Shown in pieces: positions 2,166-30,165 of a stretch of DNA of 32,000 nt. Source of the stretch: Halogeometricum borinquense DSM 11551. GTDB lineage: Archaea > Halobacteriota > Halobacteria > Halobacteriales > Haloferacaceae. The stretch is taken from positions 30,001 through 62,000 of the forward strand of contig NC_014736.1 of the NCBI RefSeq assembly GCF_000172995.2, in the 5' to 3' direction. Numbering within the stretch: position 1 is the first letter of the stretch; every line of letters starts with the position of its first letter. The translations under genes and the position numbers were made by a program. The notes under the pieces are model-generated. The model saw only the letters and a list, made by a program, of their open reading frames with translations, had not been told where the DNA came from and did no database searches.

Positions 2166-2185
2166 TTTTTAGGCTGGCCTAAAAA
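2166..2185. promoter_or_regulatory. Palindromic operator copy 1: TTTTTAGGC-TG-GCCTAAAAA
   Basis: Perfect 9+9 bp inverted repeat read directly. It sits at -10 to -29 of the 93..2156 start, so the T-rich arm occupies the expected archaeal TATA position of a leaderless gene. Confidence 0.8.
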
Positions 2186-2240
2186 TTGTTTCTGATAGAT
2201 TTGTTGATATGAGGGGCCAGTTCCGTGTCGGTGTTTGTCT

Positions 2241-4157
2241 TCAGTCATTGCTCAACGATGGCTGTGACGCCCGTTCGAAGAAGTCGTCGGGAAGGGATTC
2301 GATTTCTCCTGCTTGGACGCCCCAGAGGTTCGCATAGAGGCCATCTTCAGCAAGCAGTTCTTCGTGACTCCCGCGTTCGACGATCTGTCCGTCATCGAGG
2401 ACGAGGATGATATCGGCGTCCTTTATTGTCGACAGTCGGTGGGCGATAGCGACGGTGGTTCGATCAGCAGTAACTCGTTCGAGCGAACGCTGGATCAGTG
2501 CCTCAGTCTCAGTGTCAACGCTTGCTGTCGCCTCGTCGAGTACGATGATATCTGGGTCCTGAAGGACCGCACGAGCGAGCGCGATACGCTGGCGCTGCCC
2601 ACCGGAGAGTTTCACACCGCGCTCGCCGACCTGGGTATCGTATCCGGACGAAAGCTCTTCGATGAACGCATGGGCCTCAGCGACTCTCGCGGCTTCTCGG
2701 ACCGCCTCATCGCTTACTTCGAATCGGCCGTACCGGATATTCTCCGCTACTGTTCCGTCGAACAGCACCGTCCCCTGACTGACGTAGCCGATCGATTCAC
2801 GGAGGTCTCCGAGGCGGATGTCTCGCACGTCGTGGCCGTCAACGCGGACAGCACCCGTATCAGCATCGTAGAGCCGTAAGAGCAGCTTTGCGACCGTGGA
2901 CTTCCCAGCACCGGTCGGCCCAACTAGCGCGATTGTCTCCCCCGGCTGAGCGGTAAAATCGACGCCGTTGAGGACCTGTTCGCCGTCGTCATACTCGAAG
3001 TTTACGTCATCGTACTCGATTCGGCCGTTGGCAGAGTCAAGCGCGACGGGGTCGGAAGCATCGCGGACACGGACCGGAACGTCGAACAGACCACAGATAC
3101 GTTTGCCCGAGGCTCGCGCGTTTTCGTACCAGTCCACGATGTTCGACAGCTGTGCGAGAGGCGCAGTGAGCTGTTGGACCAACAAGATGAACACGACGAA
3201 GTCGCCGACGCTGAGTTCACCGGAAAACCCGGGAGGCGGTCCGGAGAACACCCAGACGCCGCCGACAACGAACGTCGCGAGTAGGGAAGCGCCGGTCAGT
3301 AACTTCATTCCCGGCCGATAGAGGAAGGTCAATTTTGAGACGTCCACTCTGGCCTCGAACAGATTGTGCGAGACCTCGTCCATTCGCTCGTTCTCGTGTG
3401 CGGCCGTGTTCGCCGTCTTGACCAGCTCTATCCCGCTGATTCCGTTCTCGATTTGTGTGTTCAGGTTCCCGATTTCAGCGCGCAACCTGGCATATCGAGG
3501 CTCGACGAGACGCATAAACCACCAAGTGAAACCAACGAGGAACGGGACGGCGACGAGCGTTACCACGGCAAGTTGCGTGTTCGTGTGGAAGAGTGCAGCT
3601 GAAATCCCGACAACGATGGCGAAAATACGGACGCTCTGGCTCAAAGCGTTGTCGAGAAACCGCTCTAAGTTGGATGCGTCGTTATCGAGAACGGACATGA
3701 TCTCCCCGGTCTGCGTATTGTCGAAAAAGGACATGTCCAAGCGCTGGAGTCGCTCGTAGGCGTCCGTTCGGATCTCGTACAACACTTTGTACGCGAAGAC
3801 GTTCATCGCTACGCCTCGGACCCACGTCAGTGAGGCCGTCGTCACGAGCGAGGCCGCGACGAGTGCGGCCGACAGCCAGAACTGGGTCGTCTGTTTCGTG
3901 GGGAGCCACGCCACCGGTACCAGCGGCAGGCGATAGGGACTCGGGTCGCTGGTGAAGACAGCGTCAATAGTCGTTCCGAGTACGAGTGGGGTTACAAGCG
4001 TTGCGCCGTGAGCGCCGAGGCTGGCGAGCAGTCCCAGTGTGAGCCATTTCGCCTCCGGCCGGCCGTATTCTCGGAACAGGCGGAAGAGCGGACTCGTCAC
4101 CAGCTCTTGATGAGCGCCGAGTTCCCGCTCGTTGGGATCCGGTTTGTCCGAACTCAC
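2241..4157 (-). CDS. ABC transporter, fused permease/ATP-binding exporter (MsbA-like); probable siderophore exporter
   Basis: N-terminal six-TM-type domain, Walker A GPTGAGKST and signature LSGGQRQRIALARA. GTG start. Embedded in the NIS cluster. Confidence 0.9.
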   Translation of the reverse strand: MSSDKPDPNERELGAHQELVTSPLFRLFREYGRPEAKWLTLGLLASLGAHGATLVTPLVLGTTIDAVFTSDPSPYRLPLVPVAWLPTKQTTQFWLSAALVAASLVTTASLTWVRGVAMNVFAYKVLYEIRTDAYERLQRLDMSFFDNTQTGEIMSVLDNDASNLERFLDNALSQSVRIFAIVVGISAALFHTNTQLAVVTLVAVPFLVGFTWWFMRLVEPRYARLRAEIGNLNTQIENGISGIELVKTANTAAHENERMDEVSHNLFEARVDVSKLTFLYRPGMKLLTGASLLATFVVGGVWVFSGPPPGFSGELSVGDFVVFILLVQQLTAPLAQLSNIVDWYENARASGKRICGLFDVPVRVRDASDPVALDSANGRIEYDDVNFEYDDGEQVLNGVDFTAQPGETIALVGPTGAGKSTVAKLLLRLYDADTGAVRVDGHDVRDIRLGDLRESIGYVSQGTVLFDGTVAENIRYGRFEVSDEAVREAARVAEAHAFIEELSSGYDTQVGERGVKLSGGQRQRIALARAVLQDPDIIVLDEATASVDTETEALIQRSLERVTADRTTVAIAHRLSTIKDADIILVLDDGQIVERGSHEELLAEDGLYANLWGVQAGEIESLPDDFFERASQPSLSND

Positions 4158-4361
4158 GAGCGCAACTCACCTCGTTCGTGCTGCATTTTCGGGGTTACAC
4201 CGTCAGTTCCGATGCCGATAGCTGAGATGCCGTGACGGGGGACAAACGGCAATCTATCTAGCCAGCCGCTCCCGTCTGTTTCGCAGGGTGCGAACTCAGA
4301 GCTAGTAGTCACACTCGCCATCGTCATCCGTCGCTTAGCATGTTAGCCATCATCAGTCCGA

Positions 4362-4802
4362 TCAGAGGCGGCCCTGAATGATCTCTTTCTCTCGCTGGCA
4401 GTCGAAAAGCTGTTTCTCAGCGGCTGCTTTCGGGAATCGCTCGGATTCGAACTCACCGAACTTGTCGGGATGCAGCCGTTGGGCGACCAATCCGGTTTGA
4501 TGGAGGTTTACCAGCGGCCCCTGCGAACCAAACGCACCGGGATAGACGTTGCCTTCCCTGACAGCTGTAAGCAGTCTCCCGACCGGTTCCATGCAGGCCT
4601 CGTAGCTCGCCGAGGGAGCCATCTCGTCGGTCGTCGTGGCCGTCGTCGATTCGGTTGTGAGTGTTTGACTACTGGATTCGGGGATTTCACCGGTCCTCCC
4701 GTCGGCTCCGCCAGTGAATGCGCAACCGGCCAAACCGGCGGTGAGTGTCGCGTTTGTCCCCGCAACGAACTGACGACATGTAGTTCGATAATCACTTGCC
4801 AT
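4362..4802 (-). CDS. Internally deleted paralogue of the siderophore-type substrate-binding lipoprotein (146 aa); possible relic
   Basis: Lipobox LAGC and a S/T-rich linker are present. The C-terminal ~65 aa align with the C-terminus of the 28948..30144 protein (GPLVNL..VAQRLHPDKFGEF..QLFDCQR versus GPVIDL..VAMQLFPDEFGEW..QLFDRQR). The middle ~250 aa are missing. Confidence 0.5.
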   Translation of the reverse strand: MASDYRTTCRQFVAGTNATLTAGLAGCAFTGGADGRTGEIPESSSQTLTTESTTATTTDEMAPSASYEACMEPVGRLLTAVREGNVYPGAFGSQGPLVNLHQTGLVAQRLHPDKFGEFESERFPKAAAEKQLFDCQREKEIIQGRL

Positions 4803-4805
4803 GAG

Positions 4806-4822
4806 TTTTAGGCACGCCTAAA
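4806..4822. promoter_or_regulatory. Palindromic operator copy 2: TTTTAGGC-AC-GCCTAAA
   Basis: Read directly. It lies 4-20 bp upstream of the 4802 start. A separate TATA-like TAAATAT (minus strand, 4824-4830) lies just upstream of it. Confidence 0.75.
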
Positions 4823-4877
4823 CATATTTAGTTCTTCTTGTTCTCGCAGGCCATCAAATATGACGGCGGTTTGTGAG

Positions 4878-6731
4878 TCATTTCCCATTCAGATTGTGGA
4901 GTGGATTAGAGACGCTTCCGTGGGTTGCCACGTCCGGACGCGTGCTGGTGTCCTCGTAGCCGTGTCTTACCATGCGATTACGGTTGAGACAGTACTTTTT
5001 GAATCTGGGCTGGTACAGATCGAACAGACTGAACCGGTCTTCAAATTCAGGGAATCGAGACTGGTATGCATCCATGGCTGAACGGACTTGGCCCCAAAAC
5101 CGCTCCTCGGGGTAGTCGTGGTGGCGAGCTAGCAAGTCGGCGACGTATCGAAACACACCGACAAACAGCGTTCCGACCATCCGGTGACACAGCGATTCTG
5201 GCGGAATCTGGTGAAGGATATGATGCTTATACCGGTCATCGTCTCGGAGTTCGTCCGGGAGTGCGGCCGCCAGTTCAGGGAAGTCACGGTCTGTAATCGC
5301 AACTTCGTCCACGAAGTCCTTGACAGCGATCCGCGTCGGACGACCGTCATCGTGTATGAGGACGACGTTTGTCCCGTGGGGCATGAACACGAGCCCGTAC
5401 TTGTAGAGATAGTGAAGTAGCGGATTGAGAAGCACCTCGAGGAACTCGTCGATCCAAGCGGTAAGTTCGAGGCCCGCCCGGTCTGCGAGTCTCGTGGCAA
5501 TCGGTGTGCCGTCGAAGTCCTCGTGCAGCAGTGCAGCCAGAGTGAGAGGGCGCTCGTCGTCGTCGATCAGTGACAGCACGCTCTCTCGCCAAACGCACCC
5601 GAGCAGTTCGTGGTACTGGTAGGGAGCGTCGTCGAACTGCGAGAACAGTGGGTGTTCGTAGTTAATGCTGGCAATCTCCCCGGGGAGGAGTAACTCACAA
5701 TCGTCGCGGAGGAAGGTATCGTTGTCACGAACCGACTTGATGAACGCAGTCACCCCCGGCGCGGCTTCGGCTTGCTCGCCTAGGATACCACGGTAGACGT
5801 TGGTGTTGAGGACCCGAATGGGGAGTTTCACGTGGTGCTTCTCGGGAGTAGTGGTATTCGAGAACGTCCGGATTGACTGCTGGGGGAGATACTCGTCAGG
5901 CCCCTTGCCCAGCGGGACAATGGCGTCAGTGGCGATATCTCCAGCGAACAACTGCACGATACTGTCGTTCCACTGCCAGTCGTGAACGGGCAGGAACAAG
6001 TACGCTGCCGGGTCGAGGCCGCGGTCGAGTAGCTGTTCCCGGAACTGCTCGTAGTACTCGCCCAGTTCATCGGCGATCAGGGCAGTGTGCTCAAGTCCCT
6101 CGACGGACTGGAACGTTCCGCGCTCACGGCTCACCGCAACCCACGAGAGACGCTGTGGCTCTTTCGACTCGGGCGCGTACTGGAGGTAATCGTCGTAACC
6201 GAACCCGATCCGACCCTTATTGTACGTGTACCATGGGTGGCCCTCCATCTCGCCTTCGACTTCTGCGTAGGGAAAATCGAGTATCGAGGCGGCTTCGCAC
6301 TGATTTTTTCGGGCGCGAATGTGGGCGTCAGCGACGAGTGTATTGTTGTACTCCCGAACGAGGTGGGCCGCGGTCGTCGGGTCGACGCCGATGTACTCGC
6401 GTGCGTCGAGGAAAAATTGGATCGGGTCGCCCGCCGAGTGCCATTCGGTCCCATCGTCGCGCCGATGGACTGATCCCTCCCGAATTCGGTAGCTATCGAG
6501 CGGTCGCCGTTGAGCCTCGAACCGGTACTCGATACCGTCTGTGAGCGTAAGGTGGTACCGCGTCCACGATTCGCCGGGTTCGTCGTCGCCCGCCGGTACA
6601 GTCGTTGTCGCCGCCGGCGTCACCACGTCTTCGTACATGAACTCCGCGAGGACCTTCCGAAGCAAGTTACCGTTGACAGTCGTCCAGACATCTTCGGAGA
6701 GTGCCGAGTCAAGTCGGTCAAGATTCTCCAT
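4878..6731 (-). CDS. IucA/IucC-family NIS siderophore synthetase (617 aa, IucC-like)
   Basis: Motifs LPVHDWQWN and GLVFMPHGTNVVLI. GGAGG-like SD precedes the ATG. Confidence 0.85.
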   Translation of the reverse strand: MENLDRLDSALSEDVWTTVNGNLLRKVLAEFMYEDVVTPAATTTVPAGDDEPGESWTRYHLTLTDGIEYRFEAQRRPLDSYRIREGSVHRRDDGTEWHSAGDPIQFFLDAREYIGVDPTTAAHLVREYNNTLVADAHIRARKNQCEAASILDFPYAEVEGEMEGHPWYTYNKGRIGFGYDDYLQYAPESKEPQRLSWVAVSRERGTFQSVEGLEHTALIADELGEYYEQFREQLLDRGLDPAAYLFLPVHDWQWNDSIVQLFAGDIATDAIVPLGKGPDEYLPQQSIRTFSNTTTPEKHHVKLPIRVLNTNVYRGILGEQAEAAPGVTAFIKSVRDNDTFLRDDCELLLPGEIASINYEHPLFSQFDDAPYQYHELLGCVWRESVLSLIDDDERPLTLAALLHEDFDGTPIATRLADRAGLELTAWIDEFLEVLLNPLLHYLYKYGLVFMPHGTNVVLIHDDGRPTRIAVKDFVDEVAITDRDFPELAAALPDELRDDDRYKHHILHQIPPESLCHRMVGTLFVGVFRYVADLLARHHDYPEERFWGQVRSAMDAYQSRFPEFEDRFSLFDLYQPRFKKYCLNRNRMVRHGYEDTSTRPDVATHGSVSNPLHNLNGK

Positions 6732-6808
6732 TATATCCCCTCCTCGGACAACCGAGACGATGCGGACGGTCCGACGCGTTCGTACCGTGTCGTGGCATAT
6801 GCCATCAG

Positions 6809-6826
6809 TTTTAGGCTAGCCTAAAA
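6809..6826. promoter_or_regulatory. Palindromic operator copy 3: TTTTAGGC-TA-GCCTAAAA
   Basis: Perfect 8+8 palindrome, 78-95 bp upstream of the 6731 start (leadered gene). An adjacent 12-bp palindrome TGGCATATGCCA lies at 6794-6805. Confidence 0.75.
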
Positions 6827-6911
6827 TAACAAAAGTGTTTTGGCACTGACACCGTATCGGACGAGACGAGCGATCAGAGTCGTGCGGCGAACTCCGATAT
6901 CCACGAGAAAC

Positions 6912-6931
6912 TTTTTAGGCATGCCTAAAAA
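6912..6931. promoter_or_regulatory. Palindromic operator copy 4: TTTTTAGGC-AT-GCCTAAAAA
   Basis: Perfect 9+9 palindrome at -22 to -41 of the 6953 ATG. The A-rich arm sits at the TATA position. Confidence 0.8.
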
Positions 6932-6952
6932 CGTAGCGATACGGAGATTCGA

Positions 6953-8293
6953 ATGACGCGTACCAACGCAATCGATGAGCGGTGTACCGATGGGAAGGTT
7001 GACCTCGTCCGACTGTTGTTCGTCACGCAAAGCGGAGCGGTCCGAGCGCACGCGGTCGATTCCTCGAAGGTCGAGTCAGCGGTCCAGACCGGGGTGACGA
7101 TTTCGGAACTGGTTCAGACGTACAATGCGCTCGGGCGGCGAGACAAGAGCGGCCAGTTCGATGCCGCGGGAGAAGTTAGGCTCCAGCCCGATCCGACGAC
7201 GTTCCAAGTGCTACCCTACGCCGAGCGAACCGGAGCGATGCTGTGCAACATCGAGACGCTCGACGGTGATCCGTGGCCCATCGACGCCCGTTCCTCGTTG
7301 CGAGCGCTCGAACGTGACCTTGCGGATGCCGGCCTCTCACCGAACGTCGCCTTCGAGAGCGAATTTCATCTGTTCAAACAGGGGCCGAACGAAGAGGTTC
7401 AACGCGTGGACGAACGCGGGGCCTACGCAACAGCGAGTACACGCGAAACCCACGAGACGATTCTCGCCATCGTTGACGCACTTAAGGCTCAAGACATCTC
7501 CGTCGAGAAATACTACCCGGAGTACGCCGCCGGGAAACACGAAATCGTCACCGGACACCGATCCGGACTCCGGGCGGTCGATGAGTACGTCCTTCTTCGG
7601 GAGACGGTTGACAGCGTCGCACGGGATCACGGGTACCAATCGACGTTCGTCCCGAAGCCGTTCGACAATTCGACGAACGGGTGCCACATCCACGTCTCTC
7701 TGTGGGACGACGGCAACGCCATGTACGACCCGGAGCAGAAGGAACTGAGTCAGACCGGCCGGCAGTTTATCGCGGGAATCCTTGAACACGCACCCGGTCT
7801 CTGCGCGCTCACCGCACCGACAGTCAACTCCTACGCTCGGTTGCGTCCCCAGATCGGTGCGGCCGCGTTCGTCTGCTGGGGGCGGGAGAACAGGGAGGCG
7901 CTCGTTCGCGTCCCGGCCCCAGATTCAGGGGACCCGGAGGGATCGACGCGGATCGAGTTCCGGGCGGCCGATAACACTGCGAACCCGTACGTGGCACTCC
8001 TTGGACTCCTTGCAGCCGGGTTAGACGGTGTCGAGCGCGACCTTGAACCACCGGAACCGGTCACCGTAGACCCCGGAAATCTCTCAGAGAAGGAACGGAC
8101 TGACCGCGGTGTCAATCGACTCCCTCGCACGCTCGGACAGGCACTTGATGCGCTCGAATCAGATGCAACACTACGGGACGCGCTCGGGGCCGATCTATGC
8201 AAGGCATATCTAGGTGTCAAACGAAGTCACTGGGAGGCGTTCACCCGAAGTGCAAACTCCTGGAAGCGCGATCGACTCCGAAGCATCTACTGA
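6953..8293 (+). CDS. Glutamine synthetase family protein (type I-like; gamma-glutamyl-polyamine synthetase-like)
   Basis: 446 aa. GS catalytic-domain signatures are present ([39 protein letters not shown]). Confidence 0.8.
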
Positions 8294-8408
8294 GTTCGAA
8301 CAGCCGCGTACAGGCATTCATACCGGGAATGAGAGTACTTCGCACCAGAAGTGACCCCTAATTGTGAAATATTGCTAATAAGTTTGCCTGTACCAACACA
8401 CTTTTGAA

Positions 8409-8427
8409 TTTTTAGGCTAGCCTAAAA
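8409..8427. promoter_or_regulatory. Palindromic operator copy 5: TTTTTAGGC-TA-GCCTAAAA
   Basis: Read directly, at -9 to -27 of the 8436 ATG. Confidence 0.8.
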
Positions 8428-8435
8428 CACAGTTC

Positions 8436-9845
8436 ATGCGGGAAAACCTGTCAGATCAACGACTCGCATCATCGTCCAACTCACCGGCGCGATACAACCA
8501 ATCGAACGAACGACTCAGGCGAAGCCAGGCCGAGCGCGAGTCCAGCGCTCGAACGTACCCACGGTCGTTACCGTTCGCCGTCAAACATGCTCAGGGTGCC
8601 GAGATCGTAGACGCAGACGGCGAGACGTACATCGACTGTCTCGCCGGGGCTGGCACACTCGCCCTCGGGCACAACCACCCCGAAGTAACACAAGAGGTCG
8701 AACGGTTACTGGCCGAGGACCGACCGCTCCACACTCTCGACGTGACGACTCCCGAAAAGGAGGCGTTCGTAGACGCGTTATTCGACAGCCTTCCGGACGA
8801 GTTCACAGATACCGCGAAGGTGCAGTTTTGCTCGCCCGCGGGCACGGACGCCGTTGAGGCGGCACTCAAGCTTGTCAAGACATCGACTGGTAATCGGAGC
8901 GTCCTCGGATTCCAAGGCGGTTACCACGGGATGACAAGCGGCGCACTCAGTCTCATGGGTGACACGGACGCGAAAGAGCCGGTTCCCGGGTTGATGTCAA
9001 ACGTCCACCACCTTCCGTATCCGGATCCGTACCGGCACCCGTTTGGACTCGACGCGGACGGGCACGAACCCGTGAGTCACTTCGCCGAGCGCGTACTCGC
9101 CGACCCCGAAAGTGGCGTCACCGACCCCGCCGGGCTGATCGTCGAACTAGTCCAAGGAGAGGGCGGCGTGAACCCCGCTCCTGACGAGTGGGTCCGAGAG
9201 ATCCGGCGAATCACCGACGAACACGACGTCCCGATGATCGTCGACGAAATCCAGACCGGCATGGGTCGGACGGGCGAGACTTGGTCGTTCGAGCACGCCG
9301 ACATCGTACCTGACGTACTTACCTGCTCGAAGGCAATCGGCGGCGGCCTCCCGCTCGCGGTTGTCGTCTACGACGAGGAACTCGACGTGTGGGAACCCGG
9401 TGCGCACGCTGGTACGTTCCGCGGTCATCAGCTTGCAATGGCGGCCGGTCGGGTCACGATTCGGCATGTTGTAGAGAATGACCTCGATGAACACGCTGCC
9501 GAGATGGGCGAGCGGCTCCGCGAACCGCTCGCGGACCTCGAACGCCGCTTCGACGCAGTCGGGGACGTGCGCGGCCGCGGGCTGATGCTCGGCGTCGAGT
9601 TCGTCGATACAGCGACCGAGACACCCGACGGAGAAGTACCCCCACCGGATGGCGATCTCGCGTCGGCGGTGAAGTCCGAGTGCTTCGACCGCGGCCTCAT
9701 CATCGAGACCGGTGGCCGCGACTCCGCAGTTGCGCGGTTCCTCCCGCCGCTGACTATCACCCGGAATCAAGTTGACGAGATTGCCGACCGATTCCGGGAG
9801 GCCGTCGAGGCAGTCGTCGAAGGCGACTCCGGGGTGACATCATGA
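8436..9845 (+). CDS. dat: Diaminobutyrate--2-oxoglutarate aminotransferase (class III PLP aminotransferase)
   Basis: 469 aa class III aminotransferase pattern (GGYHG, DEIQTGMGRTG, CSKAIGGG). Its stop overlaps the next start (ATGA). Confidence 0.8.
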   Translation: MRENLSDQRLASSSNSPARYNQSNERLRRSQAERESSARTYPRSLPFAVKHAQGAEIVDADGETYIDCLAGAGTLALGHNHPEVTQEVERLLAEDRPLHTLDVTTPEKEAFVDALFDSLPDEFTDTAKVQFCSPAGTDAVEAALKLVKTSTGNRSVLGFQGGYHGMTSGALSLMGDTDAKEPVPGLMSNVHHLPYPDPYRHPFGLDADGHEPVSHFAERVLADPESGVTDPAGLIVELVQGEGGVNPAPDEWVREIRRITDEHDVPMIVDEIQTGMGRTGETWSFEHADIVPDVLTCSKAIGGGLPLAVVVYDEELDVWEPGAHAGTFRGHQLAMAAGRVTIRHVVENDLDEHAAEMGERLREPLADLERRFDAVGDVRGRGLMLGVEFVDTATETPDGEVPPPDGDLASAVKSECFDRGLIIETGGRDSAVARFLPPLTITRNQVDEIADRFREAVEAVVEGDSGVTS

Positions 9846-11470
9846 GCTTCCAAGAAGCCGAAGGAAACGAGAGCGCCCCCGACGGGACGGCAACTGACGC
9901 CGTTGACGGGCAGACGCTCGCTGAACGAATGTTCATCGGAACACCGGCCGGAAACGACGCCTACATAGCGGCGATAGACCGTTGTCGTGATGCGGTACTC
10001 TCGGCAGTCGGCGAGGCGGACAGGCCGTACTCGGGATCGACGTACGCGGAACATCGGGAGCGGCTCACTCAGGACACGATTCCTGAGTCGGGTCGGAAGA
10101 TCGACGAAGTGATCGAAGATCTCGCCACAGACGTACTCGAAGAGTCGGTGTATCCGAGCGACGAAGCCTGTAGCGCGCATTTGCAGTGTCCGCCGATGGT
10201 GCCTTCACTAGCCGCCGAGGTGGTGTTGTCGGCACTGAACCAATCGATGGACTCGTTCGACCAAGCGCCCGCTGCGACGGTCCTCGAAGAGCAGGTGATC
10301 GATGACCTCACTTCGCTGTTCGGCCTTGGAGACGGCGCTGATGGCGTCTTCACGTCGGGAGGGACTCAGTCGAATCTCCAAGGGCTGCTACTCGCCCGCG
10401 AACACTATGTCGCCGAGGTATTCGACCGCTCAGTAAGAACGTCGGGTCTGCCGCCAACAGCAGAGAAAATGCGGATACTGACCTCCGAAGACGCACACTT
10501 TACCGTTGCGCAGGCGGCCGCCCAGCTTGGACTTGGTGAGGACGCCGTTGTGACGGTCCCTACAGGTGACGCCCACCAGATGGACCCCGACGAACTGGCC
10601 GACGAACTCGCCCGGCTGAAACAGGCAAACTGCCACCCATTCGCGCTCGTTGGGACGGCCGGAACAACCGACTTCGGAAGCGTAGACCCACTCAACGACC
10701 TCGCAGACCTCGCCGACGAACACGACCTCTGGTTCCACGTGGATGCGGCCCTGGGCGGAGCGCTCGCGCTGAGCGAGACTCACGCCGGAAAGCTCGATGG
10801 CATCGAGCGAGCGGACTCACTCACTGTCGATTTTCATAAGCTGCTGTACCAACCGATTTCCTGCGGCGTCTTTCTACTGTCCGACGGAGACAAGTTCGAG
10901 TTGATGGGGCGAAACGCCGCCTACCTCAACCCGAAAAGCGATCAGGTCTCGAATCTCGTCTCGAAATCGCTTCAGACGACACGTCGTTTCGACGCGCTGA
11001 AACCGTACGTCGCATTTCGGACACTCGGACGTGAGGGGATGGCGGCACTGGTCGATCGGACGGTCACTCTCGCGGATCGAGCCGCATCGCTCATTCGCTC
11101 AGATCCGGGTTTCGAACTGTCCTGTCCGCCGACGATCAACATCGTTACGTTCCGATACACGCCGGAACGCGACCACCCCGCGAGGTCGCCCGATGAGTGG
11201 GCTGATCGAATAAACCGTCGGGCCCGGGACCGACTGCTCGCGTCCGGATGCGGTGTCGTCGCCCGCACCGAAGTTGACGGGTGCGTCCACCTGAAGCTCA
11301 CGCTGATGAATCCGCGCACCACGGTCGCAGACATCCGCGAACTCCTGCTCACGCTGAAGGGGTACGCCGCTCAGGCAGAGACCAAAGCGATATCCAACCA
11401 TGGGATAGAATCCGACGACAGACTCGATTTCGCTCCAGTCTGCGGATCCGCTGACGAGGAGAGCCGATGA
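9842..11470 (+). CDS. PLP-dependent group II decarboxylase, L-2,4-diaminobutyrate decarboxylase-like
   Basis: 542 aa. PLP-lysine motif DFHKLL and SGGTQSNL. ATGA overlaps with both neighbouring genes. Confidence 0.8.
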   Translation: MSFQEAEGNESAPDGTATDAVDGQTLAERMFIGTPAGNDAYIAAIDRCRDAVLSAVGEADRPYSGSTYAEHRERLTQDTIPESGRKIDEVIEDLATDVLEESVYPSDEACSAHLQCPPMVPSLAAEVVLSALNQSMDSFDQAPAATVLEEQVIDDLTSLFGLGDGADGVFTSGGTQSNLQGLLLAREHYVAEVFDRSVRTSGLPPTAEKMRILTSEDAHFTVAQAAAQLGLGEDAVVTVPTGDAHQMDPDELADELARLKQANCHPFALVGTAGTTDFGSVDPLNDLADLADEHDLWFHVDAALGGALALSETHAGKLDGIERADSLTVDFHKLLYQPISCGVFLLSDGDKFELMGRNAAYLNPKSDQVSNLVSKSLQTTRRFDALKPYVAFRTLGREGMAALVDRTVTLADRAASLIRSDPGFELSCPPTINIVTFRYTPERDHPARSPDEWADRINRRARDRLLASGCGVVARTEVDGCVHLKLTLMNPRTTVADIRELLLTLKGYAAQAETKAISNHGIESDDRLDFAPVCGSADEESR

Positions 11471-13272: not shown

Positions 13273-13279
13273 ACACAGC

Positions 13280-13298
13280 GGACGGAGAGCTGCCGTCC
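13280..13298. terminator. Hairpin GGACGG-AGAGCTG-CCGTCC between convergent genes, followed by TTTT (13312-13315)
   Basis: Read directly. Function as a terminator is only inferred from its position between convergent stops. Confidence 0.25.
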
Positions 13299-14082: not shown

Positions 14083-14100
14083 TTTTAGGCCGTCCTAAAA
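14083..14100. promoter_or_regulatory. Palindromic operator copy 6: TTTTAGGC-CG-TCCTAAAA (one arm mismatch)
   Basis: Read directly, 94-111 bp upstream of the 13989 start. Confidence 0.65.
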
Positions 14101-20457: not shown

Positions 20458-20720
20458 GACTACTGAAAAATAGGGAATCTAGCTTCATCCCCGTACCATA
20501 CCTCATCATTTGTCTGATGGCTCTTTCACCAGCATCAAACAACATCCTATTCCCAGCGTGTTTGATTAACAGGGACTATGTTGCTCTTTGAGTCGACGGA
20601 ACGTAGTCTGCGGTGCCTAAAAAAGAAACCTGTAATACCATAATTGGATATGTGACTGATAGATAATTAACCTAATGTGAAAATAAGATACGCAACAGAA
20701 CCCAAACTCCGAAACTATGG

Positions 20721-20777
20721 AAGTTGAGACTACAGCGGGTTTAGCGGGGCTGTAATGCCTGGTTTCGGCCGAATCGG
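20721..20777 (+). repeat. ~57-bp intergenic repeat, copy A
   Basis: About 48/57 identical to 28871-28927 in the same orientation, by manual alignment. Confidence 0.8.
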
Positions 20778-22436: not shown

Positions 22437-24842
22437 CTAGTCGTCTGCGACAGCCTGAGCGTTCGGCATCTCCGGATGTGCTTCGGTCTGTTCGGACACT
22501 GGCATCCACTCCAAGGACTCCTCGTAGTGGAAGACGCGGTGATCCTGAGTCGGATCGACGACTGTCAGTGAGAGCCAGTTGTTGTCCAGAATTTCGGTCA
22601 GTTCCTCGTGGTCGGCCAGGATGTCTGTGATCCGCTCGACCGGCGCATGGACGACCGTCGAGAGGCGGAGCGGTTGATGGTACGGTTCACGGTCTGCGAT
22701 CATCAGCGACTGGAGCGGGAGTCCAGCCATCAGGTCGCCGCCGTTGCCCTGATAGACGCCGACGTTGCCGACTGGATTCTGGGTCACCTTCGACCCGCTG
22801 CCGTAGACGGCGTTGTCGACCGTGGAGAAGTAGTACTGGGCGTTGATCCACTGGGTGACGACCATGGGGCCAGTCAAGATGGCCTCGAGCGCGTCTCCGT
22901 TGGGGTCAGTCGACCAGTCGTACGAGTGGAGGAATGCACGCCCGTCGAGATCACAGCCGCTGGTCAACTCGCGGGGGCCGATCACGAAGCCAGCGTTGCC
23001 AGCCAGCCCCCACTCGGGACGCGTCTCGGCCCAGTCGGCGGCACGACGTTCCGTCTCGGTGACGCCGGTCGAGCCGTCGGCGCCCATCGCCTCTGCGCGC
23101 TCGGTAGTCGCGTTCTCGCGAGCCGTCGTGAGGTCCGTACGTAACTGGTCGAGGTCGTCCGAGTGGCTCTCTGGCACGTCGTCCACGAACAGTTCTACTT
23201 CGTCGGTCGTCGTGTTGTGCTGTCCGGCAACGAAGATCGTGTCCTCGGGGATATCGAACCCACGGTCGCGGAGTTCGGCCCTGACAGCCTCGTCGTTACA
23301 GACTTTCGCGAGGACACGAGCACTCGGGCCGCCGGGGTTGCCCGCACAGGCACCGCAGTCTAGACTCGAGTCGTAGGGGTTGTTTGCCGTCTCGCTGGCG
23401 TGGCCTGTGAAAACGACGAGGCGACTGAACTCCTTGAAACCCATCAAATCGAAGGCAGTCGCAGCATACTCGACCTGCTCCTCGTGGGTCAGCCCTACCG
23501 ACAGGTCGCCGGAGTAGGTGTGCTGGTGGTGGACCAACGGCTCACAGAACTCGTGGTCGTCGGGCACCAGCTCGGCGGCGGCGTCGATCAGGTCATGGAC
23601 GCGCCCGGGAACGAGCGTCCGGGCCGCGAGTGAGAGCCCATAGCCGCTCCCGGCAGTCTCGACGTATCCGTAGGCGGTGGCGGCATTGGCTTCCAGTATC
23701 TCGATGACGTCGGCGGCGGCCGCACGCATGCCGGACCGGCGGTCATGGCGTGCCTGCGTGTCGTCGTCAGTCGGACAGTCGATGATGTGATGCTGTGGGT
23801 CGAGAATCGGTGGACAGACATCGACCGACACGTCGTCGTCGTATCCTTGGTACTCCATCGGGATGCCGAAGAAGCCAGCGTACCCGTGGGTCTCGTAGTC
23901 GCCCGTTGCCTCGATGTGACGACGGATGACCTCCGAGCGGGTGTCGATACAGAAGACCAACTGAGCGTCCGGGCGGCCCGACGTATCGCTGTCGTCCATC
24001 GACTGACTCTGGGCCGCGACGGTCCCGACGAGGTCTTCGCGGTAGGTCGCTTCCCACGCACGCAGAAACGCCTGAGCGAGGTCATCCGCCGGGTTCGTGT
24101 TGCTAACATCGTTCGAGGGCTCGATGTTGGCGTCGACGGCATCCAGCAGTGCCAGACGCGCCGCAAGGTATCCTTCCAGCGAAATCGGGTACGTCGACTG
24201 CCATGCACCCTCGTCCTCGGCGCGCTGCTTGATGAACCTGGTCCAGCCCGGGAGCGCAGCCAATTGCTCCTCAAAGATGGGAACCCACTGACTCTCAGGG
24301 TACGACTTCAGGACCGCCTCAATAACCTCGATTGGCGCTTCGGGCAGGTCGGCGACGACCCCCTCGTCGGGGATGTCACTGTCGTATTCGGCCATTCCAC
24401 GGAAGGCGGTGTAGAACCCCGCCTCGCGGTTCGGCATCGACCAGTGGGCGCTCCCCTCGTCGAGGAAGGCCGATAACCACTTGGTCAACACTTTGTCGAC
24501 GTGGTCCGCGGCAGTGTCAGCGTCACCGTTCACGGCGTCGGCCGCGTCGGCCATACGGTCGAGTAACGTCTCGGGGTCGTCCGCGTAGCCTGCCTCGGTG
24601 AGCTCTTCTTCGAGGATCACCCGGTCGATCTGGCCGCGTTCCAGCGCCGTTCCGAACGTCTGGGCACTGGGGAAGCCACGGCCGCCTAGCAAAGTAGCTG
24701 CCTGTTCGACGGCCTCCCCGAACGGCTGGTCCTCGAACCCCGCGAGGGGGTTGGCCGTCACGAACGAGTGGATGGGCCAGAGGGAGCCGACGGTGGTCGC
24801 TGCTTCATCGATGCTGTCGCGGATGGCGGATTCAGTACTCAT
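22437..24842 (-). CDS. dabA: DabA (DUF2309/UPF0753), carbonic-anhydrase-like subunit of the DAB inorganic-carbon pump
   Basis: 801 aa. N-terminal WPIHSFVTANPLAGFE. Beta-CA-like Zn motif FCIDTRSE, plus a downstream GHASE...CGACAG. Overlaps dabB by 11 nt. Confidence 0.85.
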   Translation of the reverse strand: MSTESAIRDSIDEAATTVGSLWPIHSFVTANPLAGFEDQPFGEAVEQAATLLGGRGFPSAQTFGTALERGQIDRVILEEELTEAGYADDPETLLDRMADAADAVNGDADTAADHVDKVLTKWLSAFLDEGSAHWSMPNREAGFYTAFRGMAEYDSDIPDEGVVADLPEAPIEVIEAVLKSYPESQWVPIFEEQLAALPGWTRFIKQRAEDEGAWQSTYPISLEGYLAARLALLDAVDANIEPSNDVSNTNPADDLAQAFLRAWEATYREDLVGTVAAQSQSMDDSDTSGRPDAQLVFCIDTRSEVIRRHIEATGDYETHGYAGFFGIPMEYQGYDDDVSVDVCPPILDPQHHIIDCPTDDDTQARHDRRSGMRAAAADVIEILEANAATAYGYVETAGSGYGLSLAARTLVPGRVHDLIDAAAELVPDDHEFCEPLVHHQHTYSGDLSVGLTHEEQVEYAATAFDLMGFKEFSRLVVFTGHASETANNPYDSSLDCGACAGNPGGPSARVLAKVCNDEAVRAELRDRGFDIPEDTIFVAGQHNTTTDEVELFVDDVPESHSDDLDQLRTDLTTARENATTERAEAMGADGSTGVTETERRAADWAETRPEWGLAGNAGFVIGPRELTSGCDLDGRAFLHSYDWSTDPNGDALEAILTGPMVVTQWINAQYYFSTVDNAVYGSGSKVTQNPVGNVGVYQGNGGDLMAGLPLQSLMIADREPYHQPLRLSTVVHAPVERITDILADHEELTEILDNNWLSLTVVDPTQDHRVFHYEESLEWMPVSEQTEAHPEMPNAQAVADD

Positions 24843-26320
24843 TGTAGTCCTCCGTGGAAGTCAGTAGGGTGTTCGATGACGGTTGGGTGGCGTTCAGCAG
24901 TGCCACGTAGAGACGCTGGCTGTCCTCGTGGATGCCGGTCTCTATCGCGACGTAGATGCCGACGAAGGTGACCGCGATGACGCCGTGGAGCAGGGTCAGT
25001 TCGGTCGTTGCCGTGCTGACAGCTAGGAGGCCCGAGACGCCTTCGTAGACAACTGCGTAGATGACGATGGCCGGGAAGAACACCAGCGGGACGGCCCCGT
25101 AGCGGGCGAGTGTCGGAAGTGAGGTATGCTGGACCGCGCTGCGGGCCGCGTGGAGCGTGGTGAAGACGACGAAGAAGGTCAACAGGAGGCCGCTGTCGAC
25201 GCTTGCTCCCTTCCCCGTCAGCACCGTGAACACCACGCCACCGGCGAGACCGGTCAGCAACGCCACGACGAAGCCGACGGCACTCGTCAGAGGGCCGATC
25301 GTGTGCTCGGTGGTCTCGCTCGGACTCGTGTGTTCGACCTGTTCGCCCGAACTGAGGAACTGATAGGCCTTGTAGAAACCGTGCAGGATGAGGTGGGTGA
25401 TCGCAGCCCCGAAGAAACCGAGGCCGGCCTGCATGATCATGAAGCCCATCTGACCGACCGTCGAGCAGCCGAGTTTGCTTTTGATGTCCGTCTGGACCGA
25501 CTTCAGGAGCTTCCCGCCGCCAGCACTCGCCGCGCCGACGGCGACCACTGCGAGCATGAGCGTGGAGTCAACCGTAATGACCGGGGCGAAGCGAGTCAGC
25601 AGGATGCCGCCCGCGTTGACGAATCCGGCGTGCATCAGCGCAGACGCCGGCGTCGGTGCGGTCATCGAGGAGAGCAGCCAGTTGTGGAACGGGATGAGGG
25701 CGGACTGGATCATTGCCGCGAGCACGAGCGCGCCGGCGGCGACCAGCCACACCGAACCACCGAGCGTGTCGGCGGCCGCGCCGATTCCGGAGACCGTCGT
25801 CGAGCCGGTCGCCCACCACAGCGCTGTCAGCGCAATCCCAAGCAGTACGCTACTGGCGATAAAGTACCTGCGAGCGACCCGTCGCGGCGGCCTGTGCCTG
25901 TTTCCAGCCCTCGTTGATACCGATGAGCTCGGCCATCACCAGACCCATCGCCGCCCACAGGAACCCGAACAGTACGACGTGGTCGGCCGCGACGAGTGCC
26001 ATCACGGCTGCGGTGAATCCAAACATAGCGAGGAAGAACCTCGTTTTGTGGGTGCTACCGGCCATGTAGCGGCGCGAGTAGCTGTGAACGATACCGCTGA
26101 AGAAGGTGACCACCACCCACATCAGCACAGTCAGGCCGTCGATGGCAACCAATCCAGGGATTTCCCAGACATCACCAAACCGGATTCTGGCGATGAGGAC
26201 GACGATACTCGCGACGAACAGCGACCACACGAGCCACGTTAGTGCAACGGGCACGAACGGCGAATCTACCGTCGTGTCCGGGAGCGCTCCGACTGTCGGT
26301 TTCGAACTGTGTCCTGACAT
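24832..26320 (-). pseudogene. dabB: DabB (NuoL/MrpA-like proton-conducting membrane subunit) interrupted by a 1-nt frameshift
   Basis: Two ORFs (25850..26320 and 24832..25752+) belong to one NuoL-like protein (IPFHNWLLSSMTAPTPASALMHAGFVNAGG). The total span is 1489 nt, which is 3n+1. Dropping one C from the CCC run at 25878-25880 gives ...QAQAAATVARRYFIASSVLLGIAL... Confidence 0.7.
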
Positions 26321-27255: not shown

Positions 27256-28272
27256 ATGGAAGCACTCTCGGGAACTCTCCTCGTCGGCCGGTCGTTCGAG
27301 CCGATGCGGGGTCGTGTTGTCGTCGAAGACGGTCAGATCGAGCGTATCGAGGAGACAGAAACGACATCGACCGATATCATACTGCCGGCGTTCGTCAACG
27401 CTCACACGCATCTGGGTGACTCCGTTGCGAAGGAAGCGGCTATCGGGCTGTCGCTCGACAAAGCAGTGGCACCGCCGGACAGTCTGAAACACCGACGATT
27501 GGCGGCTGCTGACCGTTCCGACCTCGTATCAGCGATGCGCCGGACGCTCCGATTTATCGAGCGAACGGGGACGGTCTCCTGTTTGGACTTCCGGGAGTCC
27601 GGAACTGCCGGAGCACGCGCGCTCCATGAGGCGGCAGCGTCCGTTTCCCTTGACCCGTTCATCTTCGGGAGCGGAAAGAAGTCCGTCCTCGATGTTGCCG
27701 ATGGGTACGGAGCCTCCGGGGCAAACGACGGCGACTTCACCGAACAGCGTGCTGCCTGCCGGAAACGCGACGTGCCCTTTGCGATCCACGCTGGCGAACC
27801 CGACGCGACCGACATCCATCCGGCACTCGATCTGGAGCCGGACCTCCTCGTCCACATGGTGCACGCAGAACAGGACCACCTGCAACGAGTTACAGAGCAG
27901 TCAGTCCCAGTGGCAGTCTGTCCGCGCGCGAACACCGTTCTCGACGTTGGAACCCCTCCAGTACGGGAATTACTCGATCACACGACGGTCGCACTCGGGA
28001 CTGACAACGTCATGTTGAATCCCCCGTCGATGTTCCGGGAGATGGCGTACACGGTGAAACAGTTCGACGTTACCGCCCGAGAGGTGTTACGGATGGCGAC
28101 GACGGCCGGTGCCGAAATCGTTGGACTCGATTGTGGTGTCATCGCTCCCGGCCGGCGCGCAGCACTCCTCGTCCTCAACGGTGACTCGGACAATCTGACG
28201 GGCTCTGTTGATCCAGTACAGGCAGTCGTTCGTCGCGCGACCGAGTTGGACGTCAAACGTGTCCTCGTCTAG
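27256..28272 (+). CDS. Metal-dependent amidohydrolase family protein
   Basis: 338 aa. N-terminal metal motif PAFVNAHTHLGD, later HAGE and GTDN motifs. Confidence 0.75.
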   Translation: MEALSGTLLVGRSFEPMRGRVVVEDGQIERIEETETTSTDIILPAFVNAHTHLGDSVAKEAAIGLSLDKAVAPPDSLKHRRLAAADRSDLVSAMRRTLRFIERTGTVSCLDFRESGTAGARALHEAAASVSLDPFIFGSGKKSVLDVADGYGASGANDGDFTEQRAACRKRDVPFAIHAGEPDATDIHPALDLEPDLLVHMVHAEQDHLQRVTEQSVPVAVCPRANTVLDVGTPPVRELLDHTTVALGTDNVMLNPPSMFREMAYTVKQFDVTAREVLRMATTAGAEIVGLDCGVIAPGRRAALLVLNGDSDNLTGSVDPVQAVVRRATELDVKRVLV

Positions 28273-28754
28273 GAATCGTCTCCTGTCTGCGTCTTGGAAT
28301 TGAACTTTCCGAAGGGCGTCGTCTCGTGACTCCGAACGAGGACCTCGTCGGCAACGGTGAGCCCCATATCGAGAAGTTCCTGTGCAACGGGTGTAACGTC
28401 GCTGTCCGTCTCGCCGACTGCAGTGACTAGGAGGTTCTGTTCACCAGTGACCAACTCCTGGACTGATACCACGCCATCGATGGCCAGAATATCGGAGACG
28501 AGGTCACCACGTTCGGGAATCGCAGCGGTACAGTAAAGCAGCATTCGGAGCGGATAGCCTGATTTCTGATAATCAACGCTGGCGCTGTATCCTTTGATTA
28601 CGCCGTCGGATTCGAGACGCTGAATGCGCTTGCGGACAGTACTGTCGGAGGTACCGGTCCGCTCCGCGATGTCTCCGGACGACATGTTTCGGGCGTCTTC
28701 TTGGAGTGCATACAGGATCGCTTTGTCGACATCGTCGATCTTCTCGTCAGTCAT
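28269..28754 (-). CDS. Lrp/AsnC family transcriptional regulator
   Basis: 161 aa. HTH DDVDKAILYALQEDARNMSSGDIAERTGTSDSTVRKRIQRLESDGVIKGY plus a C-terminal RAM-type domain. Confidence 0.85.
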   Translation of the reverse strand: MTDEKIDDVDKAILYALQEDARNMSSGDIAERTGTSDSTVRKRIQRLESDGVIKGYSASVDYQKSGYPLRMLLYCTAAIPERGDLVSDILAIDGVVSVQELVTGEQNLLVTAVGETDSDVTPVAQELLDMGLTVADEVLVRSHETTPFGKFNSKTQTGDDS

Positions 28755-28870
28755 ATCAGTGTGTCCGCGACAAAGCCACTTTACCTTTGTACGTTGCTCG
28801 GGCTTTCAACAGAACTCTCTGCTCTTTCTTCCCTGTGGTCCCCAACGGGGTCTATCATACAGTAAGAATG

Positions 28871-28927
28871 AAGTTGAGACTATAGCGGGTTTATCGAGGC
28901 TGTGATGCGTGGTTTCGAACGGATTGG
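28871..28927 (+). repeat. ~57-bp intergenic repeat, copy B
   Basis: AAGTTGAGACTATAGCGGGTTTATCGAGGCTGTGATGCGTGGTTTCGAACGGATTGG versus copy A AAGTTGAGACTACAGCGGGTTTAGCGGGGCTGTAATGCCTGGTTTCGGCCGAATCGG. Confidence 0.8.
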
Positions 28928-28947
28928 TGTTCAGGAGTTGGAGGTGG

Positions 28948-30144
28948 TCAAACGTCGCCGTTGATGATATCCGCGACTCGCTGGCGGTCGAATAGCTGGT
29001 TTTCCGTGGGGATATCGTCGATAGTGCCCGGCCACTCGCCGAACTCGTCGGGGAACAATTGCATCGCGACCGCTTCCGCCGAGAAGAGATCAATCACCGG
29101 TCCCATATTCGTCCCGGCAGAACGGACGAAGTTATCGTTTTGCACGGCGGTCAGTTGGCTCATCGTTTCGTGATTTTTGGCTGCTTCGACGGTTTCTTGA
29201 AACGTTTCGTTGTCCGACTTTGTCAAATTATCAACTAAAGCGATATACTCTGGGTCTACCTCAAGGAGTTTTTCGTATCCAATCTTCTTGTACGGAACGT
29301 ACGTCTCCCCTTTGAACGCAGTGTCGACGCCGAGCTTACGGAAGGTTCTGGTGTCGTTTCTGAACGCATCGATATTTGCCGCCATGAACCCCTTCCCATC
29401 TACATTGAACCGAATGATGAAGGCCCCGACAGTCGGGCTGTCATCCGGGAGTCGTGACTGAATCTCGGTAAATACCGAGTCCTTGAGGTCAACCCATGCT
29501 TCGTACTGTGCCTGACGCTGGAAGATTTTCGCCGCCTTCTCGAAGGCTTCGTAGAGTGTGTAGTAAGGATCGCGGTCGTATGGGAATCGAATCAGCGACC
29601 CCAGAATCGGGCCGACGTTCTGCTCGATTTCCTTGAGATCGCTGTCATCCCACCCAGAGTACCGCTTGAGTATCCGCGGATCCATCAAGTGAACATCGGC
29701 GTCCACTTCGTAGAAGGCTTCTTTGTCAAATTCCGATTCGCTGGATTCCAACAGCGGTTGCACGGAATCCAGATCAACATCGATATCCGGAAGCGCTTCG
29801 TAATACTTCAGTTGCTCTTGTTCAAGCGACATCATTGCTGCCGGCTGGATACCCAATGCCATCGCAATATCCATCCAAGCCCCAGGAAAACTCGCGTACG
29901 TTTCGGGCACTTCCTCGAATGTATTGGTTCCAGCAGGTTTAACGGTCACATCATACGGTGTTGACGCATCGTTTGCTGCTGTGGACTCGCCGTTTGTTGT
30001 TGACTCTGCCGCGGTGCTATCTGCCGACGATGCATCGTCGTTGCCGAGACAGCCCGCAAGCACTCCACCGCCAAGAATGCTGCAGCCAGCTTTCAGTACA
30101 TCTCTGCGCCTCGGGACTCCGTATGAGATATCTCGGTCTTGCAT
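28948..30144 (-). CDS. ABC-transporter substrate-binding lipoprotein, iron-siderophore type (Tat signal plus lipobox)
   Basis: 398 aa. RRRDVLKAG...LAGC followed by a S/T/A-rich linker. It has its own copy of the palindromic operator. The family call rests partly on context. Confidence 0.65.
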   Translation of the reverse strand: MQDRDISYGVPRRRDVLKAGCSILGGGVLAGCLGNDDASSADSTAAESTTNGESTAANDASTPYDVTVKPAGTNTFEEVPETYASFPGAWMDIAMALGIQPAAMMSLEQEQLKYYEALPDIDVDLDSVQPLLESSESEFDKEAFYEVDADVHLMDPRILKRYSGWDDSDLKEIEQNVGPILGSLIRFPYDRDPYYTLYEAFEKAAKIFQRQAQYEAWVDLKDSVFTEIQSRLPDDSPTVGAFIIRFNVDGKGFMAANIDAFRNDTRTFRKLGVDTAFKGETYVPYKKIGYEKLLEVDPEYIALVDNLTKSDNETFQETVEAAKNHETMSQLTAVQNDNFVRSAGTNMGPVIDLFSAEAVAMQLFPDEFGEWPGTIDDIPTENQLFDRQRVADIINGDV

Positions 30145-30145
30145 A

Positions 30146-30165
30146 TTTTTAGGTCAGCCTAAGAA
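30146..30165. promoter_or_regulatory. Palindromic operator copy 7: TTTTTAGGT-CA-GCCTAAGAA (degenerate)
   Basis: Read directly, 2-21 bp upstream of the 30144 start. A separate TATA-like ATATAAAA (minus strand, 30168-30175) lies upstream of it. Confidence 0.65.

Follow-up and report, generated by a model that had tools for sequence, protein, structure and literature searches.

The DNA analysed here (the window) covers 32,000 nucleotides of Halogeometricum borinquense DSM 11551 (NC_014736.1, positions 30,001 to 62,000), a haloarchaeon which belongs, like Haloferax, to the Haloferacaceae, and the element in question is a short palindrome, TTTTAGGC-NN-GCCTAAAA, that stands upstream of its siderophore-related genes. 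According to Pfam and NCBIfam profiles, a cluster for a nonribosomal peptide synthetase-independent siderophore (NIS) lies at positions 93-13989. Indeed, three NIS synthetases of the IucA/IucC type, a gamma-glutamylputrescine-synthetase equivalog (hereafter GS-like), a class-III aminotransferase (Dat), a pyridoxal phosphate (PLP) decarboxylase, an RraA/aldolase-like protein, and a unit composed of an ATP-binding cassette (ABC) exporter and a truncated substrate-binding protein (SBP) are encoded there. The truncated SBP is a 146-aa fragment whose C-terminal half aligns to siderophore binding proteins, and a further SBP, of the Peripla_BP_2 family, is encoded 16 kb from the cluster. Neither a GNAT acetyltransferase nor an N-hydroxylase is encoded in the cluster, whose product is probably not a schizokinen-type hydroxamate.

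The window was scanned for TTTTAGGCNNGCCTAAAA with up to 2 mismatches, and 100 dinucleotide-preserving shuffles served as control. Exactly seven sites (hereafter boxes; see the table) were found at 0 to 2 mismatches over the 16 positions of the palindrome, and none of the 100 shuffled windows yielded any match. The boxes are a discrete class, cleanly apart from the background and not the tail of a distribution, because raising the tolerance to 3 mismatches added no site in the window and because the 14-bp core TTAGG-N4-CCTAA occurs there in seven exact copies and in no copy with one mismatch. A single isolated half-site GCCTAAAA lies at 20615. All seven boxes are intergenic and face a start codon, at distances of 2 to 93 nt, with one box in the upstream intergenic DNA of each of the seven transcription units. 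No box is present between 14.1 and 30.1 kb, a region which carries the transposase of an insertion sequence (IS), secreted proteins, a MarR-like gene, DabA/DabB, an amidohydrolase and an Lrp/AsnC gene, nor was any found, at up to 4 mismatches, in 9.9 kb of left flank and 8.1 kb of right flank. These flanks were taken from the draft assembly GCA_000337855.1, in which contig AOHT01000001.1 encodes an identical 687-aa IucA/IucC protein and stops at the IS element, close to position 16.4 kb of the window. In about 50 kb (window and flanks), no copy of the box is found at a non-iron gene. An earlier reading made from the letters of the window (hereafter the sequence-only reading) had listed the seven copies, had judged their recurrence to be beyond chance and had described them as marking the start codons of these units and nothing else. 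All of this holds, the last for 14.1-30.1 kb and for both flanks at up to 4 mismatches, with coordinates off by at most 1-2 nt and with the gene calls confirmed by Pfam and NCBIfam; its labels of one mismatch for the box at 14083 and two for the box at 30147 are also correct, whereas the one mismatch at 4806 had been left unflagged.

Table. Boxes, their target genes and other features of the window, followed by loci in other genomes (L numbers denote stretches from those genomes; promoter classes A and B are defined in the text).
Feature	Position	Strand	Sequence or product	Context
Box 1	2167..2184		TTTTAGGCTGGCCTAAAA; 0 mismatches	10 nt before ATG 2156 (-); class B; distal arm at about -28 to -22, the TATA position
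Box 2	4806..4823		TTTTAGGCACGCCTAAAC; 1 mismatch	3 nt before ATG 4802 (-); class A
TATA-like element	4824..4831		CTAAATAT	directly upstream of box 2
Box 3	6809..6826		0 mismatches	77 nt before ATG 6731 (-)
Box 4	6913..6930		0 mismatches	22 nt before ATG 6953 (+)
Box 5	8410..8427		0 mismatches	8 nt before ATG 8436 (+); intermediate between classes A and B
Box 6	14083..14100		TTTTAGGCCGTCCTAAAA; 1 mismatch	93 nt before ATG 13989 (-); far side is degenerate DNA broken by the IS
Box 7	30147..30164		TTTTAGGTCAGCCTAAGA; 2 mismatches	2 nt before ATG 30144 (-); class A
TATA-like element	30168..30175		ATATAAAA	directly upstream of box 7
NIS synthetase	93..2156	-	IucA/IucC-FhuF, 687 aa	box 1 target
Exporter/SBP unit	2241..4802	-	truncated SBP (4362..4802) and ABC exporter (2241..4157)	box 2 target
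NIS synthetase (iucC)	4878..6731	-	IucA/IucC-FhuF, 617 aa	box 3 target
Upstream ORF, 24 codons	6731..6805	-		starts 3 nt past box 3; TAA overlaps iucC ATG (TAATG)
GS-like gene	6953..8293	+	gamma-glutamylputrescine-synthetase equivalog (NF045547, 734 bits)	box 4 target
dat operon	8436..13272	+	dat and PLP decarboxylase (8436..11470), IucA/IucC-FhuF of 601 aa (11467..13272)	box 5 target; stop and start codons overlap
RraA-like gene	13315..13989	-	RraA-like/aldolase family	box 6 target
Upstream ORF, 31 codons	13983..14078	-		starts 4 nt past box 6; stop overlaps RraA-like start (ATGGTAA)
SBP gene	28948..30144	-	Peripla_BP_2 substrate-binding lipoprotein, 398 aa	box 7 target
Inverted duplication, 44 nt	6808..6851 and 8385..8428		84% identical	spans box and upstream promoter elements of iucC and dat
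Direct repeat, about 58 nt	20720..20777 and 28870..28927		84% identical; intergenic	shorter kin at 14418..14442
dabB	24833..26320	-	DabB (Proton_antipo_M)	one extra C at 25880
Lrp/AsnC gene	28269..28754	-	Lrp/AsnC regulator	directly downstream of the box 7 SBP gene
RGP-family genes	L015:2457-3632, L053:529-1707, L103:92-1270, L105:576-1730		PF03214	and nine more haloarchaeal loci
DUF5059 genes	L111:1270-3759, L104:3890-6361		DUF5059	and three more loci
Box-proximal upstream ORFs	L026, L050, L097, L003, L024, L031, L124			start 2-6 nt after the box
DtxR-like neighbours, Bathyarchaeia	L002, L043			palindrome outside Halobacteria
DtxR-like neighbours, Bacteroidota-type metagenome-assembled genomes (MAGs)	L009, L051, L082, L101			palindrome outside Halobacteria
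DtxR-like neighbour, Acidobacteriales MAG	L034			palindrome outside Halobacteria
DtxR-like neighbour, Calditrichia MAG	L078			palindrome outside Halobacteria

In Haloferax volcanii, chromatin immunoprecipitation sequencing (ChIP-seq) of the DtxR-family repressor TroR recovered TTTAGGC-NNN-CCTAAAANAN in all 32 intergenic peaks, and the consensus derived from these data and validated with reporters is TTTAGGC-NNN-CCTAAAA (Martinez Pastor et al., NAR 2024, PMC10783522). Deletion of troR in this species derepresses the siderophore operon iucABDC-bdb-dat under replete iron, a reporter in which both tandem boxes of P_hvo_B0047 are mutated loses its iron-dependent repression, and the evidence for this mode of control includes RNA-seq as well as promoter-reporter mutagenesis (PMC10783522). 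TTTTAGGC-NN-GCCTAAAA is the Hfx. volcanii TroR motif written as a full palindrome, and all seven sites of the window fit the TroR consensus with 0 to 2 mismatches over the full 16 positions. It is highly probable that TroR, the iron-sensing repressor of haloarchaea, uses the seven palindromes of H. borinquense as its operators. The sequence-only reading had proposed the operator of a dedicated iron-responsive repressor of the DtxR type, which is supported by the box already defined for TroR by ChIP-seq and reporters (PMC10783522); it had treated the cognate regulator as open, and by homology this place would go to the TroR orthologue. We infer that this orthologue is the binder, that iron is the signal and that steric occlusion is the mode of action. 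The same reading had noted no DtxR-family gene in the window, and none was found when its six-frame translation was searched with a genuine DtxR protein, taken from one of the non-haloarchaeal loci described below; another DtxR probe touched only the winged helix-turn-helix (wHTH) of the Lrp/AsnC protein in the window, at 13.8 bits. Such an absence is expected, because in Hfx. volcanii troR is chromosomal and the siderophore cluster is carried on pHV3. The box type has already been characterised, and H. borinquense is to our knowledge a species in which it had not been described so far.

Another DtxR paralogue, Idr- or SirR-like, could bind the boxes with the same metal-dependent repression logic. 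Haloarchaea carry 1 to 6 DtxR paralogues, and Idr1 and Idr2 of Halobacterium salinarum have been tied to siderophore genes (PMC3074139), with the same boxes standing before its dat gene. This alternative is nevertheless improbable: the exact motif was assigned to TroR by ChIP-seq in Hfx. volcanii (PMC10783522), where idr is itself a TroR target, and in Natrinema a DtxR-like gene sits behind a box. As for SirR, the Mn (manganese) box of Hfx. volcanii, TTTwGAnnnnTCwAAA, is a distinct motif and was rejected as a description of the boxes, with 0 matches in the window at up to 1 mismatch, which speaks against the SirR-type candidate of the sequence-only reading.

The conservation of the box was examined by scanning the exact palindrome in species-representative genomes (one per species), which gave a sample of at least 120 matching stretches; the counts below hold among the matches listed. 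Halobacteria, which make up well under 1% of the genome collection, account for 67 of the first 120 exact matches, in more than 20 genera. At the haloarchaeal loci, open reading frames (ORFs) facing away from each box and starting within 200 nt of it were called, which gave 60 flanking genes. These include 13 genes for Peripla_BP_2 proteins, 13 for RGP-family proteins (PF03214), five for DUF5059 proteins, of which four have a C-terminal cupredoxin, four dat genes (Aminotran_3), two genes for extracellular solute-binding proteins of the SBP_bac_6 family, which we take to be of the iron(III) type, and one DtxR-like gene (Fe_dep_repress), that of Natrinema, whose position behind a box is consistent with the TroR repression of idr. 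The other flanking genes are singletons, an expected outcome if a palindromic site controls the gene on just one of its sides.

The box is also retained at orthologous promoters. Indeed, in Halostagnicola larsenii and Halostella pelagica, the divergent region between iucC and the GS-like gene carries two boxes, dat is preceded by one or two, and SBP genes by one or two; the DNA between the boxes is not conserved while the boxes are. The spacing of box 4 to the GS-like start is likewise kept (21 and about 23 nt in two relatives). On plasmid pNRC200 of Hbt. salinarum, a tandem box pair (35 bp apart) precedes dat. On pHV3 of Hfx. volcanii (stretch L123), boxes are found at 7215 and 7251, 36 bp apart, the second of which ends 3 nt before the ATG of HVO_B0047, and further boxes lie at 8553 and 8862, the latter before dat. 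The box at 8553-8570 is near-perfect, and an ATG 2 nt further on opens an unannotated 35-codon ORF, which sits in the 457-nt gap between HVO_B0047 (an SBP gene) and dat.

Two of the protein families found behind boxes deserve separate mention. The RGP-family protein (about 393 aa, highly conserved and cytoplasmic) is encoded 10-12 nt behind a perfect box in 13 sampled species, in the class B register described below, and seems to be an unexplained, conserved component of the iron regulon; it has no NCBIfam name, and no relevant literature linking RGP with haloarchaea and iron was found. The DUF5059 proteins are secreted, about 825 aa long and encoded directly behind boxes, and four of the five genes have a Copper-bind match. 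The two sequences read contain repeated HE-rich motifs and a C-terminal plastocyanin/halocyanin-like domain, and these proteins are reminiscent of EfeO-type iron-uptake components.

The remaining 53 of the 120 listed matches are non-haloarchaeal; they were meant as a chance background and, not being random, are unusable as a null. Their flanking genes (n=36, among the matches listed) include eight of the DtxR family, four of the Nramp family, two of the ZnuA type and two for cation efflux, and the eight DtxR-family regulators carry Fe_dep_repress, Fe_dep_repr_C and FeoA (FeoA/SH3) domains. This suggests that the identical 18-bp palindrome is a widely shared operator type of the DtxR/MntR family beyond the haloarchaea, and a DtxR-family binder is independently supported because the same palindrome adjoins DtxR-family genes in other phyla.

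Another reading is that no regulatory protein is involved and that the palindrome simply accompanies these genes, either as a generic element (of strong promoters, or one containing a TATA box) or as a dispersed repeat. Its T-rich arm can take the TATA position, and the boxes at 6809 and 8410 lie within the 44-nt inverted promoter duplication, which spans the box and the upstream TFB-recognition element (BRE) and TATA box of the iucC and dat promoters, one of which appears to have been copied to the other. Such an explanation is very improbable: the box is confined to siderophore-linked units in the window and stands mostly beside iron-uptake genes at the 67 listed haloarchaeal loci, the other five copies are alike in nothing but the box and short BRE/TATA stretches, TroR dependence was demonstrated by mutagenesis in Hfx. 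volcanii (PMC10783522), and the same palindrome is found at metal-regulator loci of other phyla. A miniature inverted-repeat transposable element (MITE) or other dispersed repeat was also rejected, as likeness extends past the 18-bp box only in the duplicated pair. The sequence-only reading had set as a test whether the motif stands just as often upstream of unrelated genes; because the neighbours in the haloarchaeal sample are mostly iron genes, the box is not a generic promoter element. That the nearby Lrp/AsnC regulator binds the boxes, as the sequence-only reading had also suggested, is scarcely credible and was rejected: its gene follows the box-controlled SBP gene and its wHTH shows a weak likeness to the DtxR N-terminal domain (25.8 bits, cut-off 26), but this likeness is generic (18 HTH families match), the genuine DtxR probe does not pick the protein up, the box is kept in genomes and loci without an Lrp/AsnC neighbour, and the binder was identified experimentally as TroR in Hfx. 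volcanii (PMC10783522).

The promoters of the 60 haloarchaeal flanking genes were aligned at their start codons, and 40 of these genes begin at most 12 nt from the box. In class A (26 of 60 genes), the distance from box to start is 1-5 nt; the 8 nt directly before the box are TATA-like (TTATAT, CTATAA, TTTTAT) and are themselves preceded by BRE-like cGGAA/cGAAA. If a leaderless start at the ATG is assumed, the TATA-like element is centred at about -25 and the palindrome covers about -20 to -3, and the start codons of this class probably head leaderless transcripts. As at HVO_B0047, an additional and weaker box is found about 36 bp further upstream in many class A promoters. In class B (13 of 60 genes), the distance is 10-12 nt and there is no separate TATA; the TATA position (-29 to -22) is taken by the distal arm TTTTAGG, with ACCGaCAG before it.

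This geometry fits repression by occlusion of the core promoter, which is how archaeal repressors usually act. An iron-loaded TroR dimer would recognise TTAGGC-NN-GCCTAA with its flanking T/A runs, at a box placed on the core promoter of one unit of the NIS siderophore cluster or of its binding protein gene, and would thereby block the assembly of TBP (the TATA-binding protein) and TFB (transcription factor B) or of RNA polymerase. In class A, TroR bound just downstream of the TATA box may hinder the recruitment of TFB or RNA polymerase; in class B, where the T-rich arm would serve as the TATA box, it may compete directly with TBP. At low iron, TroR would leave and all seven units would fire together.

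Several points weigh against the TroR reading and the geometry proposed for it. No troR orthologue was located for H. borinquense in a search that covered the window. The siderophore genes of Hbt. salinarum have been ascribed to Idr1 and Idr2, with other, weak motifs (PMC3074139), and the assignment of DtxR paralogues may differ between genera. The matches of the genome scan were listed in unknown order, so that enrichment is judged from a sample. Furthermore, the positions of transcription starts are assumed from start codons. For boxes 4, 3 and 6, which are separated from the annotated starts by 22, 77 and 93 nt respectively, a leaderless geometry hangs on the reading of short upstream ORFs.

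Such ORFs are present downstream of boxes 3 and 6, where they end in overlap with the start of the main gene. A 24-codon ORF lies at the same place before iucC in Halostagnicola (L125, about 11073-11145) and Halostella (L126, about 11008-11080), where it ends in ATGA; the peptides encoded upstream of iucC in these two and in H. borinquense are unrelated. ORFs of 24 codons also precede dat in Haloarchaeobius and Halogeometricum pallidum, an upstream ORF precedes the DtxR-like gene of Natrinema, and the dat gene of Hbt. salinarum shows the same layout with the overlap GTGA. Among the haloarchaeal matches listed, seven boxes combine an ATG at no more than 12 nt with a gene at 15-200 nt. At six of these seven, those of Haloarchaeobius, Halogeometricum pallidum and Natrinema included, the end of the short ORF falls precisely on +1 of the main start (ATGA), against a background of 25/310 (8%) for upstream ATGs that are out of frame at these loci. 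An Rfam scan of the window gave 0 hits, so that the 75-93-nt leaders do not correspond to any known RNA element. We infer that the promoters with a distant box also belong to class A, their transcript beginning at a start codon and the main gene being coupled by termination-reinitiation, and the overlaps suggest that leadered iron genes are translated, by a conserved coupling of this kind, from a transcript of the leaderless type. The orthologous cases cannot be counted as independent, however, and SD-like (Shine-Dalgarno-like) GGAGG motifs before main starts offer an alternative route of initiation. The whole architecture, fixed across Halobacteria, with two registers (1-5 or 10-12 nt before an ATG), the T-rich arm as TATA in the second of them and, where the regulated gene lies 75-170 nt further on, a box-proximal ATG opening a probably leaderless upstream ORF coupled to the main gene by termination-reinitiation, goes beyond the published placement at about 100 nt upstream and is put forward tentatively and with more reserve than conviction.

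Some further features of the window were noted. The dabB gene has one extra C in the window relative to draft contig AOHT01000002.1, which splits the 495-aa DabB into ORFs of 306 and 156 aa and reflects a sequencing error or else a strain-level frameshift. The direct repeat (about 58 nt) has one copy close behind the 3' end of the SBP gene and another near the IS element; it could be the end of an IS or else a miniature element. The region is absent from the PLSDB plasmids, among which the best match is 80% identical. A scan of the window for sigma-70 promoters and terminators gave counts at background level, with a model that is irrelevant to archaeal promoters.

In summary, the TroR regulon defined in Hfx. 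volcanii would extend to H. borinquense, and, among the matches listed, the box stands by iron-uptake genes in many genera of haloarchaea. With the box as a guide, genes can be placed in the iron regulon, in the window the GS-like and RraA-like genes, the truncated SBP/exporter unit and the distant orphan binding protein, and elsewhere the RGP-family and DUF5059-cupredoxin proteins, and it helps to delimit an unusual NIS siderophore cluster. This is not a new kind of regulation; what is added are the promoter registers, the putatively coupled upstream ORFs and the occurrence of the palindrome at DtxR/MntR loci of other phyla.

Among known systems, the TroR box of Hfx. volcanii shares with those of the window its sequence, the family of its host (Haloferacaceae) and its targets, which include a dat-led siderophore operon, siderophore binding proteins and an idr-like gene, and also in its position beside the TATA box, the proximal box lying 3 nt from the ATG of HVO_B0047 (PMC10783522). 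In Hfx. volcanii there is a single hexacistronic operon, and the boxes at HVO_B0047 are in tandem, whereas in H. borinquense the NIS cluster is divided among five or six units with one box each. The latter cluster has neither the GNAT nor the N-hydroxylase gene, but three IucA/IucC genes, one GS-like and one RraA-like gene, and in this it differs from the clusters in Hfx. volcanii and Hbt. salinarum, which are of the schizokinen type. The motif is placed about 100 nt upstream of start codons in Hfx. volcanii (PMC10783522), while the perfect copies sampled here mostly lie 1-12 nt from them. The SirR box is likewise a palindrome with a T-run, a 4-nt spacer and an A-run, bound by a DtxR paralogue, but its core is GA/TC instead of AGGC/GCCT, and SirR controls Mn uptake (Nramp, MtsABC). 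At the DtxR/MntR-type loci of Bathyarchaeia, Bacteroidota and others, the exact TTTTAGGC-NN-GCCTAAAA is present as in the window, and the targets look like Mn/Fe-transporter and autoregulated regulator genes, in contrast to the siderophore clusters of the window.

The iron box of DtxR and IdeR in Corynebacterium and Mycobacterium is the 19-bp TTAGGTTAGSCTAACCTAA. In the DtxR consensus TTAGGTTAGCCTAACCTAA, positions 1-14 read TTAGG-N4-CCTAA and positions 6-19 read TTAGC-N4-CCTAA, so that this box is made of two overlapping 14-bp units offset by 5 bp. In crystal structures of DtxR-tox operator complexes, two dimers are bound, which matches two overlapping units. The half-sites TTAGG/CCTAA, the regulator family and the iron-dependent repression of iron uptake are common to both systems; the haloarchaeal box is a single 14-bp unit extended by T/A runs to an 18-bp palindrome, which would bind one dimer, and it stands on an archaeal TBP/TFB promoter, whereas the DtxR/IdeR box has two units and stands on a sigma-70 promoter. 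A classical 19-bp DtxR/IdeR box was rejected for the window, since each of the seven sites has its half-sites 4 and not 9 nt apart, with no second register offset by 5 bp. The 4-nt separation of the half-sites had been pointed out in the sequence-only reading, correctly, but as a departure from the DtxR box, which it is not, since the unit occurs twice within the 19-mer. MDR1 of Archaeoglobus fulgidus, studied by Bell and colleagues in 1999, is reportedly a metal-dependent DtxR homologue that blocks the recruitment of polymerase in vitro, from operators which overlap the TATA box or come after it. Its operator, GTT-N8,9-AAC, differs from the boxes (PMC3074139). MDR1 is the mechanistic model followed here for the boxes of the window, the mechanism coming from in vitro work for MDR1 and from promoter geometry for H. 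borinquense.

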